Origin: Desulfobacterales bacterium
Lineage (GTDB): Bacteria; Desulfobacterota; Desulfobacteria; Desulfobacterales; UBA5852
DNA: 64,000 bases
Assembly (NCBI GenBank): GCA_963674755.2
Contig: CAXXVS010000002.1
Coordinates: 1,600,001 to 1,664,000, forward strand
Direction: 5' to 3'
The position numbers were made by a program, and so were the translations under genes. Below, in pieces: positions 5,103 to 23,642 of the stretch; positions within the stretch are counted from its first letter, which is position 1; every line of letters begins with the position of its first letter. The notes beneath the pieces were generated by a model. The model made no database searches, was not told the origin of the DNA, and saw only the letters and a program-made list of their open reading frames with translations.

Positions 5103-5449
5103 CCCATCCTCCCCTATGTTTGCCATAATCATCTGATCCCGGCGATAGCCCCCTAGCCAGGGGCCTCCCCTCCTCAAAAGGCAGCGACATCTTCCTCGTA
5201 ATGATCGCGGGCGAAAAATAATGGCACGTCCATGAACGCCGGTCTTCCCGCCGTCTGCGTCTCCATAGCCAGAGCCCCCCAATCCCATGCACGCTTTTCG
5301 AAAACCGGCGGTATGGAGAAACGCCGTACTCACTGTGTAAAATATTTCCTATAATTCACTACCGAATGCCTTGGTTATCCTATCGTCAATCCCCGCAAAT
5401 ACGATATAACCATTTGATATTTTTTCATTAATATAAAACTAACACATCA

Positions 5450-5465
5450 TGGCATACAGTTTGCT
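5450..5465 (+). promoter_or_regulatory. sigma54 promoter (-24/-12)
   Basis: TGGCATACAGTTTGCT is GG-N10-GC, preceded by an AT-rich tract. Confidence 0.7.
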
Positions 5466-5560
5466 GTATAGAACCATAAATTTATAACAGATGGTATACC
5501 ACAGGCGTTTGGACAGTGAAATGATGACAAAGCCTGAGCCTTTTTGTGGGAGATTTGAAA

Positions 5561-5764
5561 ATGCGTAAATGCTTCCTTGTCATATGCATGCTGCTATTCA
5601 TGCTGATCCTGATGGGTTCGGCATCTGCCGATTGGTTCTCTGCGACATTGCCCACCAGATCGCTTCTCTCCGAACACACCGCCCTTATCGGGTTGGGTGC
5701 CGCCATGGTCGCTTTGGGCGCCTATGGACGGCGGGCCCTATCCAAAGACCGCTCCCAAAACTAA
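5561..5764 (+). CDS. small exported protein with PEP-CTERM-like tail
   Basis: GGGAGA RBS; signal peptide ending ASA; C-terminal LSEH-hydrophobic helix-GRR. Confidence 0.6.
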   Translation: MRKCFLVICMLLFMLILMGSASADWFSATLPTRSLLSEHTALIGLGAAMVALGAYGRRALSKDRSQN

Positions 5765-15525: not shown

Positions 15526-16728
15526 ATGAACTCGCAGGACTACATCGAGCTTGAGAATCGTTATGGCGCCCACAACTACAAACCTCTGGACGTCGTGCTG
15601 ACGCGGGGCCAGGGCATCTGGGTCTGGGATGTGGAAGGCAAACGCTATCTGGACTGCCTTTCGGCCTATTCGGCCGTCAATCAGGGGCACTGCCACCCGG
15701 CCATCATGCAGACCATGGCGGATCAGGCCCGGCTGTTGACCCTCACCTCACGGGCCTTCCGCAATGATCAACTGGGCCTCCTCTACAAAGACGTCTGCGA
15801 GCTGACCCACTCCCATAAAATGCTCCCCATGAACAGCGGGGCGGAAGCGGTCGAGACGGTGATCAAAGCGGTCCGCAAGTGGGGCTACAAGGTCAAGGGC
15901 GTGCCGGACGACCAGGCGGAAATCATCGTATGCCGCAACAATTTTCACGGTCGTACCATCACCATCGTGGGCTTCAGTTCGGACCCGGGCTCCCGGGACG
16001 GCTTCGGCCCGTTTACGCCCGGATTCAAAACCGTGCCCTTCGGCGATGCCGAGGCCCTGGCGAATGCCATCACACCCAACACCGTCGGTTTTCTGGTGGA
16101 GCCCATTCAGGGTGAAGCCGGGGTCATCATCCCCCCGGAGGGCTATCTGCGCCGGGCCAAACAGCTCTGCGAGCAGCACAATGTCGTTCTGATCCTGGAT
16201 GAAATCCAGACCGGTCTGGGCCGCACGGGCAAACTGCTGGCCGAGGAGCACGAGGGCGTCGAAGCGGATCTGACCCTGGTGGGCAAGGCGCTCTCCGGCG
16301 GCTACTATCCGGTATCGGCGGTCCTTTCCAATAAAGAAGTCATGGATGTCTTGCGCCCCGGCGAACACGGCAGCACCTTTGGGGGCAATCCCCTGGCCTG
16401 TGCCGTAGCCCGCACGGCCCTGCGGGTCCTGGTGGAGGAAGGCATGATCGAAAATGCCGCCCGAATGGGGGCCTACTTCCTGGAAGCCCTGCAGTCCCTT
16501 GGTTCACATAAGATAAAGGAAATCCGCGGCAAGGGGCTGATGATCGGCGTCGAATTGGTGCCGGATGCCGGAGGGGCCCGGCAGTACAGCGAAAAATTGA
16601 TGGCCGAAGGCATCCTTTGCAAGGAGACCCACGAGCATATCCTGCGCTTCGCCCCGCCCCTGGTGATCACCCGGGAGGACATCGACTGGGCCATGGAAAG
16701 GATTGCAAAAGTGCTGCGGGCCGATTAA
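15526..16728 (+). CDS. rocD: ornithine aminotransferase
   Basis: [41 protein letters not shown] and [18 protein letters not shown]. Confidence 0.95.
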
Positions 16729-17763
<1,035 letters not shown>

Positions 17764-17782
17764 AAAAAGGAGCACGCACGGG

Positions 17783-19102
17783 ATGATCGAAAACGTCATC
17801 ATCATGGGAGCGGCCGGCCGGGATTTCCACAATTTCAACATCTATTTCAAAAACAATCCGCGCTACCGGGTGGTGGCCTTCACGGCCGCCCAGATCCCCG
17901 ATATCGACGACCGCCTCTATCCGCCGGCCCTGGCCGGAGAGCTCTACCCGGAAGGCGTGCCCATCTACGATGAAAACGAACTGGCCGCCTTGATCCGCAA
18001 ACACAAGGTGGATCTGGTGGCCTTCTCCTACAGCGATGTCCCCCACGAGGCGGTCATGCACAAGGCCTCCCTGGCCATGGCCGAAGGCGCCGATTTCATC
18101 CTGATCGGGGCCACCTACACCATGCTGCGCTCCCGCAAACCCGTCGTGGCGGTCTGCGCCGTGCGCACCGGCTGCGGCAAATCCCAGACCACCCGCAAGG
18201 TCTGCCGCATCGCCCGAGACCGGGGCCAGCGCGTGGTGGCGGTCCGCCACCCCATGCCCTACGGCGATCTGACCCAGCAGGTGGTGCAGCGCTTTGCGAA
18301 TATCGAGGACTTCGACCGCCACCGGTGCACCATCGAGGAACGCGAGGAGTACGAGCCGTTGGTGGACCAGGGAATCGTGGTTTACGCCGGTATCGATTAC
18401 CAGGCCATCCTGGCGGAAGCTGAAAAGGAGGCCGATATCATCGTCTGGGACGGCGGCAACAACGACACCCCCTTCTATCGCCCCAACGTCCACATCGTGG
18501 TCTTCGATCCCCATCGCGCCGGCCATGAATGCCGCTACTACCCGGGCGAAACCAATATGATCATGGCCCATATCGCGGTCATCAACAAGGTGGACAGCGC
18601 CGATCCCCAGCAGGTGGCCATCGTGCGCCAAAACATTGTCGAACACGCACCCGAGGCCGATATCGTGCTGGCAGAATCCGCCATCCTGGTCGACGCGCCG
18701 GAACGGATCAAGGGCCAGCGGGTGCTGGTGGTGGAGGACGGCCCCACCCTGACCCACGGCGGGATGTCCTTCGGGGCCGGCACCATCGCGGCCCGGCGCT
18801 ACGGTGCGGCGGAAATTGTGGAAGCCGCCCGGTTTGCCGTGGGCCGCATCCGCGACACCTACGCCCAATATCCCCATATCCGTCAGGAACTCCCGGCCAT
18901 GGGCTATGGCCGGCAGCAGATCCGGGATCTCGAGGAGACCATCCGGCGGGCCGACTGCGATCTGGTCCTGTGCGCAACCCCCGTCAATCTGCCGCGGCTG
19001 CTCGACATCGACCGCCCCACCCTCCGGGTGCGCTATGAATACCAGGACGCCCCCCAGGGGCCCCGGCTGGAGGACGTCCTCACACGGCGTCTCGGAATCT
19101 GA
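17783..19102 (+). CDS. arcE: cyclic 2,3-DPG synthetase-like P-loop protein, probable arginine synthetase (ArcE type)
   Basis: GAAGRDFHNFN, P-loop VRTGCGKS, TIEEREEYEP, WDGGNND and VEDGPTLTHGGM; lies between OTC and carbamate kinase. Confidence 0.75.
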   Translation: MIENVIIMGAAGRDFHNFNIYFKNNPRYRVVAFTAAQIPDIDDRLYPPALAGELYPEGVPIYDENELAALIRKHKVDLVAFSYSDVPHEAVMHKASLAMAEGADFILIGATYTMLRSRKPVVAVCAVRTGCGKSQTTRKVCRIARDRGQRVVAVRHPMPYGDLTQQVVQRFANIEDFDRHRCTIEEREEYEPLVDQGIVVYAGIDYQAILAEAEKEADIIVWDGGNNDTPFYRPNVHIVVFDPHRAGHECRYYPGETNMIMAHIAVINKVDSADPQQVAIVRQNIVEHAPEADIVLAESAILVDAPERIKGQRVLVVEDGPTLTHGGMSFGAGTIAARRYGAAEIVEAARFAVGRIRDTYAQYPHIRQELPAMGYGRQQIRDLEETIRRADCDLVLCATPVNLPRLLDIDRPTLRVRYEYQDAPQGPRLEDVLTRRLGI

Positions 19103-19126
19103 ACCCCCGCGAAAGGTCGTCATCCC

Positions 19127-20068
19127 ATGCCCCGCGCCCGGCCCTATGAAACGCTTTTGATTGCCCTGGGCGGCAATGCCCTCATTCGCAAGGGCCAGGC
19201 GGGCACCATCCGCGAGCAGTTCGACAATTTACACGACCCCATCCGCCAGATCGCCAAACTCTCACGCCGCTACCGGGTTATCATCACCCACGGCAACGGC
19301 CCCCAGGTGGGCAATCTTCTGTTGCAGCAGGAATGCTGCGATGCGGCCCCCCGCTTGCCCCTGGAAATCCTCGTGGCCCAGACCCAGGGGCAGATCGGCT
19401 ACATGATCGAATCCACCCTGGATACCGCACTCATGGAGCTGGGCGTGCATTTCAAACAACCGTTTATTACCCTCATCACTTATGTGGTGGTCAGTGAAAA
19501 AGATCCGGCTTTCAAGAATCCCACCAAACCCATCGGGCCCCTTCTGACCGAATCCCAGGCCACGGCCAGCCCGTTTCCGACGCGCCCAACCGCCAAGGGC
19601 TTCCGTCGGGTGGTGGCTTCGCCCCGGCCGGTCACGGTGGTGGAAAAACGGGAGATCCGCCAATTGACCGGCCTGGGGTTTATCGTGATCTGCTGCGGCG
19701 GGGGCGGGATTCCGGTCACCCGCGAAGGACGGTCTTTCAACGGGGTGGATGCGGTCATCGACAAGGATCTGGTGAGTGCCAAGCTGGCCGAAGAAATCGA
19801 GGCCGACCGCTTTGTCATCGCCACCGACGTCGAGGGGGCCGCGCTCCACTACGGTACACCGCAGGAGCAGTTTCTGCAGCGCATCACGGTTGGCGAGGCG
19901 GAGACCTACCTGCGGGAGGGTCATTTCCCACCCGGCTCCATGCAGCCTAAAATCGAGGCGGCCGCGGCCTTTGTCCGCCACGGCGGCCGGGAAGCGGTCA
20001 TTACCTCCCTGGCGCACATCGAAGCGGCGGTCCTGGGCTCGGCCGGCACCCGCATTAGCGCGGGTTAG
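19127..20068 (+). CDS. arcC: carbamate kinase
   Basis: ALGGNAL, THGNGPQVG, PTKPIG, RRVVASP, GGGGIPV, AVIDKD and GSMQPK. Confidence 0.96.
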   Translation: MPRARPYETLLIALGGNALIRKGQAGTIREQFDNLHDPIRQIAKLSRRYRVIITHGNGPQVGNLLLQQECCDAAPRLPLEILVAQTQGQIGYMIESTLDTALMELGVHFKQPFITLITYVVVSEKDPAFKNPTKPIGPLLTESQATASPFPTRPTAKGFRRVVASPRPVTVVEKREIRQLTGLGFIVICCGGGGIPVTREGRSFNGVDAVIDKDLVSAKLAEEIEADRFVIATDVEGAALHYGTPQEQFLQRITVGEAETYLREGHFPPGSMQPKIEAAAAFVRHGGREAVITSLAHIEAAVLGSAGTRISAG

Positions 20069-20117
20069 ACGGCGCGCAGACCGTCCCTGGCGCCTGGTTT
20101 GCCGGCTGACGCAATGC

Positions 20118-21242
20118 CTATTTCGAAGAAGTATAGGGCGCGGTCCGGGGATAAGGTGCCGTGAGGGAGCCGCTGTCCCGCACGGCCATCGTCAAAATCG
20201 GCTGCCCCGGGTAATAATAGACCCCATGGGTGCGGCCCAGAACGATGCCTTCGTGGGAAGAGCGGATGACCCCGTTGCCCACCGGGCGGCCCCATACATC
20301 CCGCATTTCGGCCACCACATCCCCCTTGCCCACGCGCATGCCTGCATCCACGAGATGGTGGACGATGCAGGCTTCCTGCACCCGCGGGGTCCGCATACGG
20401 CACACCGGATAACCCGGCCGGATCACCCGGATGTCCTCGATGGCCTCGGGCTCGTCATCGAGCATGCCGGCCCAGCGCATGACATTGCGCGTCCCGGCGC
20501 AGGCCGCCTTAATGATCACGGGGTCCGGCACCAGGCCGGTGCCCAATTCGGCGGTAAAGGCGGGAATACGGCTTTTCTGCAGCACCGACCCGGAGGCGGT
20601 GCGATGGAGGTCTTCGCGGATGTAAGTATCCGCCGGGTATTCGTTCACCACGGTATGGCCATAAGCGTTCACCATCTGATCTAACTGATCGGCCAGTTCC
20701 AGGGCCCGCTGATGATCGGCCGGATCGTCTTCCCGGTAGAGAATGCGATCCCGTAGCGCAAAGGACAGGGAACCGATCCAGGCATTGTGGAAGTCGATAA
20801 AATAATCCGCTGAGGCCACAATCTCCTCGTAGAGGCGGGCATAGGCCTTTTCAAGAGAGGAAGGCGGATCGCGGTCGGGATCGCCGGCCGGAAGGGCTTT
20901 GATTTCCGGCCAGATCCGGTTGGGATCGTCGGCGGCATGGTAGGGTTTGCGCTGCATGGTGCGGAGCCCGCCCGGATTCATGGCCGGCATGGCCACGATG
21001 GTGCCCTGCAACCGCCGCAGCAGATCCTCGTTGATCAAACGGTAGATGGCCAGGGGCCCCGCCTGCTCGGATCCGTGCACGCCGGCGATCAGCCACAGGC
21101 ACGGACCGGGCGCTGATCCCCGGGCCAAAATAACGGGGAAAAATTCCATGTTCCCGGTCGGGTGGGCCAGTGCTTCCCAGCGGCCGTATTGAATCTTGCC
21201 CGCTACGGCGGTGACATCGCCAACCGTCAGCTTTTCTGCCAT
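20118..21242 (-). CDS. succinylglutamate desuccinylase/aspartoacylase (M14-like) family
   Basis: AGVHGSE, DPNR, IDFH and TAELG motifs; C-terminal barrel-sandwich domain. Confidence 0.85.
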   Translation of the reverse strand: MAEKLTVGDVTAVAGKIQYGRWEALAHPTGNMEFFPVILARGSAPGPCLWLIAGVHGSEQAGPLAIYRLINEDLLRRLQGTIVAMPAMNPGGLRTMQRKPYHAADDPNRIWPEIKALPAGDPDRDPPSSLEKAYARLYEEIVASADYFIDFHNAWIGSLSFALRDRILYREDDPADHQRALELADQLDQMVNAYGHTVVNEYPADTYIREDLHRTASGSVLQKSRIPAFTAELGTGLVPDPVIIKAACAGTRNVMRWAGMLDDEPEAIEDIRVIRPGYPVCRMRTPRVQEACIVHHLVDAGMRVGKGDVVAEMRDVWGRPVGNGVIRSSHEGIVLGRTHGVYYYPGQPILTMAVRDSGSLTAPYPRTAPYTSSK

Positions 21243-21359: not shown

Positions 21360-22919
<1,560 letters not shown>

Positions 22920-22956: not shown

Positions 22957-22973
22957 TGTAAATCATGTTTACA
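22957..22973. promoter_or_regulatory. candidate enhancer palindrome TGTAAA-N5-TTTACA
   Basis: Palindrome about 150 bp upstream of the sigma54 promoter at 23125; further TTACA half-sites extend to 23086. Confidence 0.5.
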
Positions 22974-23124
22974 GCAAACCTTCCTCTGTATCAACAGCGT
23001 TTACACACCGTCACAGACTGTTTTGCCATTAAAAATTGCCCCCCTTACCATAACGTCCTGAAAAGAGTTGTTACAAAGCCGTTACAATCGCGGCCACCAC
23101 GATCCCCCGCCAGCCGGATTTAAC

Positions 23125-23140
23125 TGGCATCGATTATGCA
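23125..23140 (+). promoter_or_regulatory. sigma54 promoter of candidate sRNA
   Basis: TGGCATCGATTATGCA is GG-N10-GC. Confidence 0.65.
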
Positions 23141-23150
23141 GACCCTTTCA

Positions 23151-23298
23151 CCAGCCAACATGAATTTAGGGCACGACCCCAAGTGCAAAAGGGATCGTTG
23201 TTTTAACCAGCCCTCCTGAAGGATACGCCCAAACCTCTCCGCGTATTCTTCTACCCCGCCTGTCATCTGCCGGCTTTGACAGGCGGGGTTACTTTTTT
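23151..23298 (+). ncRNA. candidate sigma54-dependent sRNA (~145 nt)
   Basis: Bounded by a sigma54 promoter and a strong terminator; internal hairpin and anti-SD CCCTCCT. Confidence 0.5.
23253..23298 (+). terminator. intrinsic terminator
   Basis: ACCCCGCCTGTCA/TGACAGGCGGGGT 13-bp stem followed by TACTTTTTT. Confidence 0.8.
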
Positions 23299-23491
23299 GG
23301 GGATCCCCCACCGGCGGAGCACTGCCGAAGCCATTTCAAGAAAACACCTCGGATCGGCTGAACCGCCCGGGGGCCGCCTGTGAAACGTTTTACCCAATGA
23401 TGAGGTAACCAGACCCCGAATCCATTCTGCATATCATCACAAAATTTTATTTTTTTATATTATTTCAGCATGTTAAAAAATGAGATGAATA

Positions 23492-23507
23492 CGGCACAGG
23501 AATTGCT
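23492..23507 (+). promoter_or_regulatory. sigma54 promoter
   Basis: CGGCACAGGAATTGCT is GG-N10-GC, with an AT-rich IHF-like tract upstream. Confidence 0.75.
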
Positions 23508-23561
23508 TTGAACCATTCTCGATGTAAAATGAACAATGATCCAAAAGGAGGAGGTTATACA

Positions 23562-23642
23562 ATGCTGGGCGCTTTTGACAATTTCGATCTTGTTGGCCTG
23601 ACCATCGCCGTCATTTCCCTGATCAGGGTTGCCGTGGGATAA
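23562..23642 (+). CDS. 26-aa hydrophobic small protein MLGAFDNFDLVGLTIAVISLIRVAVG
   Basis: AAGGAGGAGG RBS, sigma54 promoter, one hydrophobic helix; below the ORF-track size cutoff. Confidence 0.65.
   Translation: MLGAFDNFDLVGLTIAVISLIRVAVG

Follow-up and report, generated by a model that had tools for sequence, protein, structure and literature searches.

In the genome of a Desulfobacterales bacterium, a predicted small RNA (sRNA) and an ORF for a small hydrophobic peptide lie next to each other, each behind a sigma-54 promoter motif and close to the gene of a GAF-domain activator. Do the two form a cognate pair under one sensor, or are they neighbours with separate control? A preliminary description, made from the letters of the DNA, had taken them for a type I toxin-antitoxin-like pair in which the RNA would cover the Shine-Dalgarno sequence (SD) and the AUG of the peptide mRNA. 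The window analysed here is a stretch of 64,000 nucleotides (positions 1,600,001 to 1,664,000 of contig CAXXVS010000002.1, assembly GCA_963674755.2), and coordinates refer to it unless another locus is named. G000 denotes the analysed genome, the other G-numbers denote further genomes (13 congeneric genomes including G000), and L-numbers denote further loci.

The sRNA-like element and the adjacent peptide gene

The predicted sRNA is ~148 nt long (23152..23299, + strand), its start being placed from the promoter spacing, and contains a conserved core of 90 nt (23209-23298, + strand). In a DNA search of 61 genomes, the RNA was matched in 10 of 12 congeners and in 0 of 48 others. The core is 91–99% identical among the congeners, the flanks cannot be aligned beyond the closest relative, the 5′ ~57 nt are variable, and the total length of the orthologues ranges from 102 to 232 nt. 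The RNA was not matched in G009 and G012; G012 is 70% complete, and in G009 the RNA falls in an assembly gap, since the activator and the peptide both lie at contig ends. A pattern scan of metagenomes added 21 RNA loci; around the RNA, three of them repeat loci already known from the genomes, and others are almost the same, so the locus counts used here are not independent. A covariance model run over 151 genomes of the order gave strong matches in the genus only. It also gave 24–31 bits in three other genomes; the two matches inspected are plain terminators, and the third is locus L022. Rfam has nothing at its gathering threshold at the RNA locus (best E 2.7), and G000 holds a single strong copy of the RNA.

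The predicted sRNA folds with −54.9 kcal/mol (z −4.59) into two hairpins. The first has 11 bp (23218..23251, + strand), and its loop presents CCUCUCC (23234-23240), an invariant anti-SD heptamer and probably the seed, which is open with a probability of at least 0.90 in 21/21 orthologues. Just upstream lies a second C-rich anti-SD element, stretch 1 (CCCUCCU; 23211..23217, + strand), which is likewise near invariant and varies in accessibility, with an open probability of 0.00–0.94 over the 21 orthologues (0.08 in G000) and frequent sequestration. The other hairpin resembles an intrinsic terminator (23253..23299, + strand; 13 bp, −26.3 kcal/mol, followed by a U tract) and has a conserved loop. 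This loop contains an invariant, self-complementary GCCGGC (within 23266-23276), which is unusual in terminators and may serve to extend the stem or to dimerise the RNA.

Over 20 distinct cores, 99.1% of the cells are paired and 8 are compensatory, and 0 of 500 shuffles reach either value; in the core shuffle test, the pair and pair-type counts lie within the shuffles (83/500 and 310/500). In hairpin 1, 100% of the cells are paired and the sole variation is to G-U on the + strand, while the terminator hairpin has compensatory changes in three pairs. The one-sided stem variants are G-U on the + strand, and no variation occurs in 9 of the 11 pairs of stem 1 or in 9 of the 12 of stem 2. A coding reading of the RNA is disfavoured because G005 and L202 carry a 1-nt loop insertion. 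The RNA is a conserved non-coding structure with a terminator-like end, and the sRNA-like element of the preliminary description has been borne out in its conservation and its two hairpins. It looks like a real, conserved sRNA-like element and a predicted transcript.

The peptide ORF (23562..23642, + strand) encodes 26 aa with a net charge of ~0. All 20 aligned orthologues are 26 aa long and share the invariant residues M1, F8, D9, G12, L20, and R22, with net charges of −1 to +1 and GRAVY values of 0.95–1.88. A dN/dS of 0.23 indicates purifying selection, and every third codon position is variable. No match was found in a Pfam search. Among 401 genomes of the class, strong matches are confined to the genus (G000 plus 5 of 6 congeners); elsewhere there are five weak ones (E 0.004–0.05). 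The small hydrophobic peptide gene proposed from the first inspection has thus been upheld, and its product looks like a real encoded protein.

The RNA and the peptide are neighbours in 30 of 32 loci, with a gap of 222–918 nt (918 nt in G006, where the peptide is downstream of the RNA). One of the two loci where no peptide adjoins the RNA is truncated. The other is that of G008 (98% complete), in which the RNA is followed directly by mutM and the peptide is absent both there and elsewhere in the genome. In the window, mutM is the next gene after the peptide ORF, and its linkage to the RNA is nearly as tight as that of the peptide. The activator gene lies upstream of the RNA in every locus that reaches that far. 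It is flanked by a class III aminotransferase gene and an AstE/AspA-family gene (15526-21242), a neighbourhood which is a trait of the genus and is absent in the other lineages checked; the same stretch holds ORFs that we take to be, from their sequences, ornithine carbamoyltransferase and carbamate kinase genes. Between the terminator and the upstream motif of the peptide promoter, a short element was observed (23340-23385; CCTCGGATCGG...GGGGCCGCC). It has several weak look-alikes in G000 and is perhaps a small dispersed repeat.

An RNA of this build would display a C-rich heptamer in an always-open loop, cover the SDs of distant mRNAs, and thereby repress their translation without Hfq or ProQ. 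Hfq was not found in 13/13 congeneric genomes and ProQ was not found in 5/5 genomes, the positive controls being detected in both searches. No conserved mRNA target was found either, in pattern searches that were exact-match and of low power. The stretch-1 pattern occurs at ech in three genomes, with CAGGAGGG in 6 of 9 ech orthologues, and YAGGAGGG occurs at trpD in 6 of 8 orthologues. Both sites are SD-like and explicable by descent, and ech ranks 832 after accessibility; the two genes are the best candidate leads, though weak ones. Wider 8-mer patterns in five genomes returned trpD, oadG-like and fmdB-like repeats, and one unnamed ORF, none of them decisive. Other candidates were discarded. 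The loop-1 + ATG pattern gave 22 matches over 13 genomes, with one gene common to G000 and G004 only; just one G000 gene has both sites at its start, and it lacks conservation; and the second-ranked activator gene is present in 2 of 13 genomes. For feedback on the start of the GAF activator itself, only weak pairing (−8.4) was computed.

The missing chaperones and the missing conserved target would also fit an RNA that acts by its whole structure on a protein or another RNA, as a decoy, a sponge, or a dimer joined at the GCCGGC loop, instead of by covering SDs. The invariant pairs of both stems and the conserved terminator loop point the same way. Against this stand the facts that both invariant single-stranded heptamers are anti-SD, that loop 1 is open in all 21 orthologues, and that the low power of the exact-pattern searches weakens the lack of targets as an argument. 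GGA in a loop is the motif of Csr/Rsm-type binding, and no loop GGA motifs of this type are found on the + strand. We regard such whole-structure action as improbable, though still deserving attention, and seed pairing by the open heptamer is retained as the preferred mode of action.

Promoters, upstream motifs and the P1 cassette

The two sigma-54 promoter motifs noticed at the outset are both conserved. P1 (−24/−12; 23125..23140, + strand) was recognised by sequence before the RNA in 30/32 loci, the remaining two being cut upstream, and P2 (23492..23507, + strand) precedes all 30 peptide ORFs found. Divergent from the RNA lies the gene of a one-component sigma-54 activator of 519 aa (21360..22919, − strand), for which Pfam shows GAF, AAA+, and HTH domains, in line with the GAF sensor named in the preliminary description; it is the presumed activator of P1. 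Its best NCBIfam match is NifA, with 404 bits, under the cut-off of 528.85.

A paired-site motif scan identified two copies of a 17-bp palindrome, TGTAAA-N5-TTTACA, between the activator gene and P1 (upstream activator site 1, 22957..22973; site 2, 22989..23005). Such paired sites, 32 bp apart and 126–138 bp before the sigma-54 box (the −24 box in orthologues), are present in 32 of the 34 activator loci given to the scan. The pair at 22957/22989 is unique in G000, with a score of 35.7 against 21.8 for the runner-up; none of the next 14 site pairs has a sigma-54 motif nearby. P1 is thus the sole predicted target of the GAF activator in the genome, and the activator is presumed, from synteny, to bind and act at these paired sites.

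The peptide promoter has another motif. Approximately TRTGAAA-N4-TTTCCCA, it lies at 23379..23396 and is found 112–145 bp before P2 in 19/20 orthologues. The earlier proposal that a single GAF sensor controls both promoters is therefore unsupported, because P2 bears an upstream motif of its own. A matrix for this motif, seeded by eye and trained on 18 orthologous peptide promoters without G000, was applied to 346 intergenic sigma-54-like sites of G000 (mean −2.8, sd 5.6). The first rank was taken by an operon ending in exosortase and EpsI (EPS), ranks 2, 13, and 16 by three PEP-CTERM genes (two called by pattern only), rank 4 by a PEP-CTERM-like small ORF, and rank 5 by a choice-of-anchor O protein; the peptide itself ranks 7th. 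The P1 regions score below zero with the P2-type matrix in 5/5 cases. Among the relatives, 4 of 14 PEP-CTERM loci have a scorable promoter, with scores of 7.2–14.9. Exosortase was found in only 4 of 13 genomes, which argues that the P2 regulon is broader than the exosortase system and that the peptide is a member of the regulon and not part of the exosortase machine. From their motifs, the RNA and the peptide look separately controlled.

PrsR (TIGR02915) was not detected above cut-off in five genomes, in which the control likewise went undetected everywhere, and the GAF protein scores 295 with the PrsR model against a cut-off of 502.6. Beside the EPS locus, separate ORFs for a receiver domain and for an AAA+/HTH sigma-54 activator were observed (L231:4365-5857; G000 C1:870365-871860). 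This activator is unlikely to be the genus-wide activator of P2, as a search of 5 relatives turned it up in just 1. A P2-type upstream motif also accompanies a sigma-54 promoter at position 5450, elsewhere in the window (5333-5764, + strand). The ORF that follows (5561-5764) encodes 67 aa with a signal-peptide-like start and a degenerate PEP-CTERM-like tail, and has no NCBIfam match.

The activator and its promoter extend beyond the genus. In 46 loci with full-length activator orthologues, this RNA is present in nine, and 18 of the 36 other usable loci have an ORF of 113–123 aa behind P1 with a signal-peptide-like start and a conserved Cys (for example, L039:4282-4626, − strand, behind an orthologous P1). 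The secreted protein has 156 homologues, the named ones all hypothetical except for one mixed label. It belongs to no Pfam or NCBIfam family, its structural model is confident and all-helical with no PDB fold match, and its Atlas scores are low. It was not found in G000, and more distant homologues occur elsewhere in the genome in 3/3 congeners tested. Behind the secreted-protein ORF, a different structured RNA was found in eight loci; in four, the ORF is gone or eroded and the RNA is kept.

This different RNA (L039, L041, L043, L065, L068, L070, L072, and L074) lies upstream of the activator gene on the opposite strand and is a conserved element of ~110 nt with a predicted three-way junction; a related form occurs in L044, L062, L064, and L069. 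Rfam gave no match for it in the four of its loci scanned and returned tRNAs only over 12 orthologous activator loci. A protein of ~70 aa with two CxxC pairs was also observed after the secreted protein or in its place behind P1 (L037, L040, L042, L045, L046, L049, L052, L054, and L061). The single copy scanned has no Pfam or NCBIfam family.

One could imagine from these loci a single-output GAF/sigma-54 cassette, spread across the Desulfobacterales, that in this genus exchanged its secreted protein for a chaperone-free anti-SD sRNA, perhaps by erosion of the mRNA around a structured 3′ element. The RNA would then oppose a second sigma-54 regulon of the cell surface that the peptide serves, the whole forming a two-input switch. 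The erosion step is proposed because sister lineages show a different RNA outliving a decaying ORF. Descent of the present RNA from the secreted-protein mRNA is hypothetical, since no sequence homology between it and the three-way-junction RNA was found, and we consider the scheme in its entirety a speculative one with a low chance of being right.

Pairing between the RNA and the peptide mRNA

The 21-bp duplex proposed between 23196-23224 of the RNA and 23539-23564 of the peptide mRNA reads as described, and all pairs of its four helices form over the SD and the AUG (6/6 with one G-U, 5/5, 6/6, and 4/4). It was ranked with the RNA window picked by hand in the preliminary description, against 5,403 start regions from our own gene calls. 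By raw energy (−24.9 kcal/mol), it comes 57th of the 5,403 start regions and 20th of the 590 strong-SD starts, and in this respect, in the top ~1%, the suggested genome-wide ranking favours the pair. The advantage does not survive the costs of opening, which are 17.7 kcal/mol for the RNA and 8.1 kcal/mol for the mRNA and leave a net duplex energy of +0.9 kcal/mol. The best remaining interaction with the peptide mRNA (−10.5) ranks 150th of 5,033 scored, with 368 genes outside the scoring. The pairing is not clearly above chance, and the caveat that it may be a generic anti-SD match has proved apt.

Conservation tells the same story. Two of the helices, CGUUGU and UAACC, fall in the variable 5′ segment and are already disrupted in G004, the closest relative, where the activator shares 93% identity with that of G000; the GGAU helix falls within an invariant stem. 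Over 26 orthologous pairs, the mean duplex energy is −16.3 kcal/mol for cognate and −16.8 kcal/mol for non-cognate combinations, and the cognate preference expected of an antisense pair is absent. As this comparison is blind to the invariant seed, the seed was tested separately. Against a G000 background, the orthologous peptide starts have median percentiles of 56% and 41% for the two seeds, with 1/20 and 2/20 in the top 5%. Whole RNA against whole mRNA, computed for 21 of the 26 pairs, gave net energies of −2.0 to −7.8 at scattered sites, and no conserved pairing site was found anywhere on the peptide mRNA in these 21 pairs; the covariation check in orthologues thus speaks against the pair. 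Two loci, L008 and L202, are without any peptide SD. The signal in G000 has been attributed to its unusually strong SD, which binds any orthologous RNA. Cognate pairing is not a conserved feature.

The strength of this SD bears on another reading, in which the RNA regulates broadly by anti-SD pairing and the peptide mRNA, having acquired a very strong SD, has become one of its targets in the lineage of G000 and G004. For loop 1 at the peptide start of G000, the raw energy is −20.2 kcal/mol, in the top 0.5%, and the 5′ part of the RNA forms an extra 12-bp helix with positions −31 to −20 of the mRNA in G000. The net energy of the loop-1 interaction is just −3.4, however, non-cognate RNAs bind the G000 and G004 mRNAs about equally, and helices of 11–12 bp occur in 6 other pairs of the 21. 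Such lineage-specific targeting is unlikely, and somewhat more so than action by the whole structure.

An antitoxin is expected whenever its toxin mRNA is present. The type I reading, with a toxic peptide and the RNA as its dedicated antitoxin acting through the 21-bp duplex, can draw on that duplex and its raw energy, on the small hydrophobic peptide, and on the adjacency of the genes, of which the one clear loss took the peptide and not the RNA; it is nevertheless very unlikely and should be dropped as unsupported, given the unfavourable net energy, the broken helices and missing SDs in relatives, the lack of cognate preference, its need for activator-dependent sigma-54 transcription of both genes from different motifs, and the absence of extended, accessible, specific complementarity (~15 or more continuous bp, the ZorO/OrzO threshold), the longest helix being 6 bp against the 15 continuous or 17 near-continuous pairs given for ZorO/OrzO (PMC3919570).

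A reading of the locus and its known counterparts

We therefore return to two neighbouring, separately wired sigma-54 units, an anti-SD sRNA driven by the GAF activator and a peptide placed with surface genes under a second activator, as the reading that we hold to be probable, with considerable room for doubt. Computation shows that the sequences are conserved, that the RNA is structured, that the ORF is under coding selection, that the upstream motifs are of two kinds, and that no cognate pairing is conserved; from these we infer transcription, the assignment of activators to motifs, repression by base pairing, and the role of the peptide. The GAF activator would sense a small molecule, occupy the paired 17-bp sites, and turn on P1, whose product would be the two-hairpin sRNA. 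The 26-aa peptide, probably membrane-associated, would be made from P2 by a different activator, which would also serve cell-surface genes such as the EPS/exosortase operon and those for PEP-CTERM proteins. Given their adjacency in 30/32 loci, the peptide and the RNA might still be functionally linked, though mutM is nearly as tightly linked. Several observations count against this two-unit reading: both stems and the terminator loop are more invariant than seed pairing requires, no conserved target was found, few PEP-CTERM loci of the relatives had a scorable promoter, the P2 motif was seeded by eye, and the two pair-type measures lay within the shuffles.

No description of the RNA, the peptide, or the cassette was found in the literature searched, mostly without subscription papers, in agreement with the first impression that the module was unrecognised. 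An RNA family that has a one-component sigma-54 sensor to itself appears to be undescribed, as does the small protein. The search for regulatory RNAs of sulfate reducers gave papers on the Desulfovibrio group only; DseA is reportedly an RNA derived from a SAM riboswitch (10.1101/803072). The accessible parts of PMC9850573 and PMC11124144 contain nothing on this RNA element. Regulatory RNAs described so far from sulfate-reducing bacteria are very few, and the locus adds a well-bounded family with a predicted promoter, sites, activator, and seed, together with a conserved protein of 26 aa that lacks annotation and a candidate motif of a cell-surface regulon. As the family sits in a genus in which Hfq and ProQ were not found, chaperone-free regulation becomes directly testable. 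One promoter type serves a protein or an RNA depending on the lineage, which may also be a natural record of the birth of an sRNA.

Several known systems resemble parts of the locus. Qrr RNAs are Hfq-dependent, and the present RNA has no Rfam match to them. Vibrio Qrr1 has a sigma-54 promoter with two upstream activator sites (PMC10162802), as P1 does, but its activator LuxO is a receiver-domain protein. The PEP-CTERM box of the PrsR regulon, through which sigma-54 controls PEP-CTERM and EPS genes, is 17 nt long and ends in TTTACA (PMC1569441), and the P1 site (22957-23005) resembles it; unlike in that regulon, the PEP-CTERM genes of this genome bear the other, P2-type motif, and the peptide has neither a PEP motif nor a basic tail. 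ZorO/OrzO likewise places a small hydrophobic peptide beside an sRNA and does not need Hfq. There, the complementarity of OrzO is specific and runs unbroken over 18 nt (PMC3919570), whereas here at most six contiguous pairs are formed, they are not conserved, and the genes are in tandem behind different sigma-54 motifs. Campylobacter CJnc230/FlmE is a trans-acting, RpoN-dependent RNA of ~100 nt with two stem-loops and a conserved single-stranded anti-SD motif (PMC11187230). The RNA described here shares this two-hairpin anti-SD build, its own RpoN dependence being predicted from the promoter motif, but FlmE is processed from the flgE mRNA, whereas the present RNA is bounded by promoter and terminator motifs of its own and carries two anti-SD elements. 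Finally, the pairs DVU0679/Dv_sRNA2 and DVU0653/ncRNA of Desulfovibrio vulgaris show that a sulfate reducer can devote a sigma-54 activator to one adjacent ncRNA, its only listed target (PMC3333781 and PMC4641369). Both of those activators are response regulators of two-component systems, and their RNAs lie downstream; the present locus is set apart by its arrangement, a one-component GAF activator divergent from its predicted RNA.
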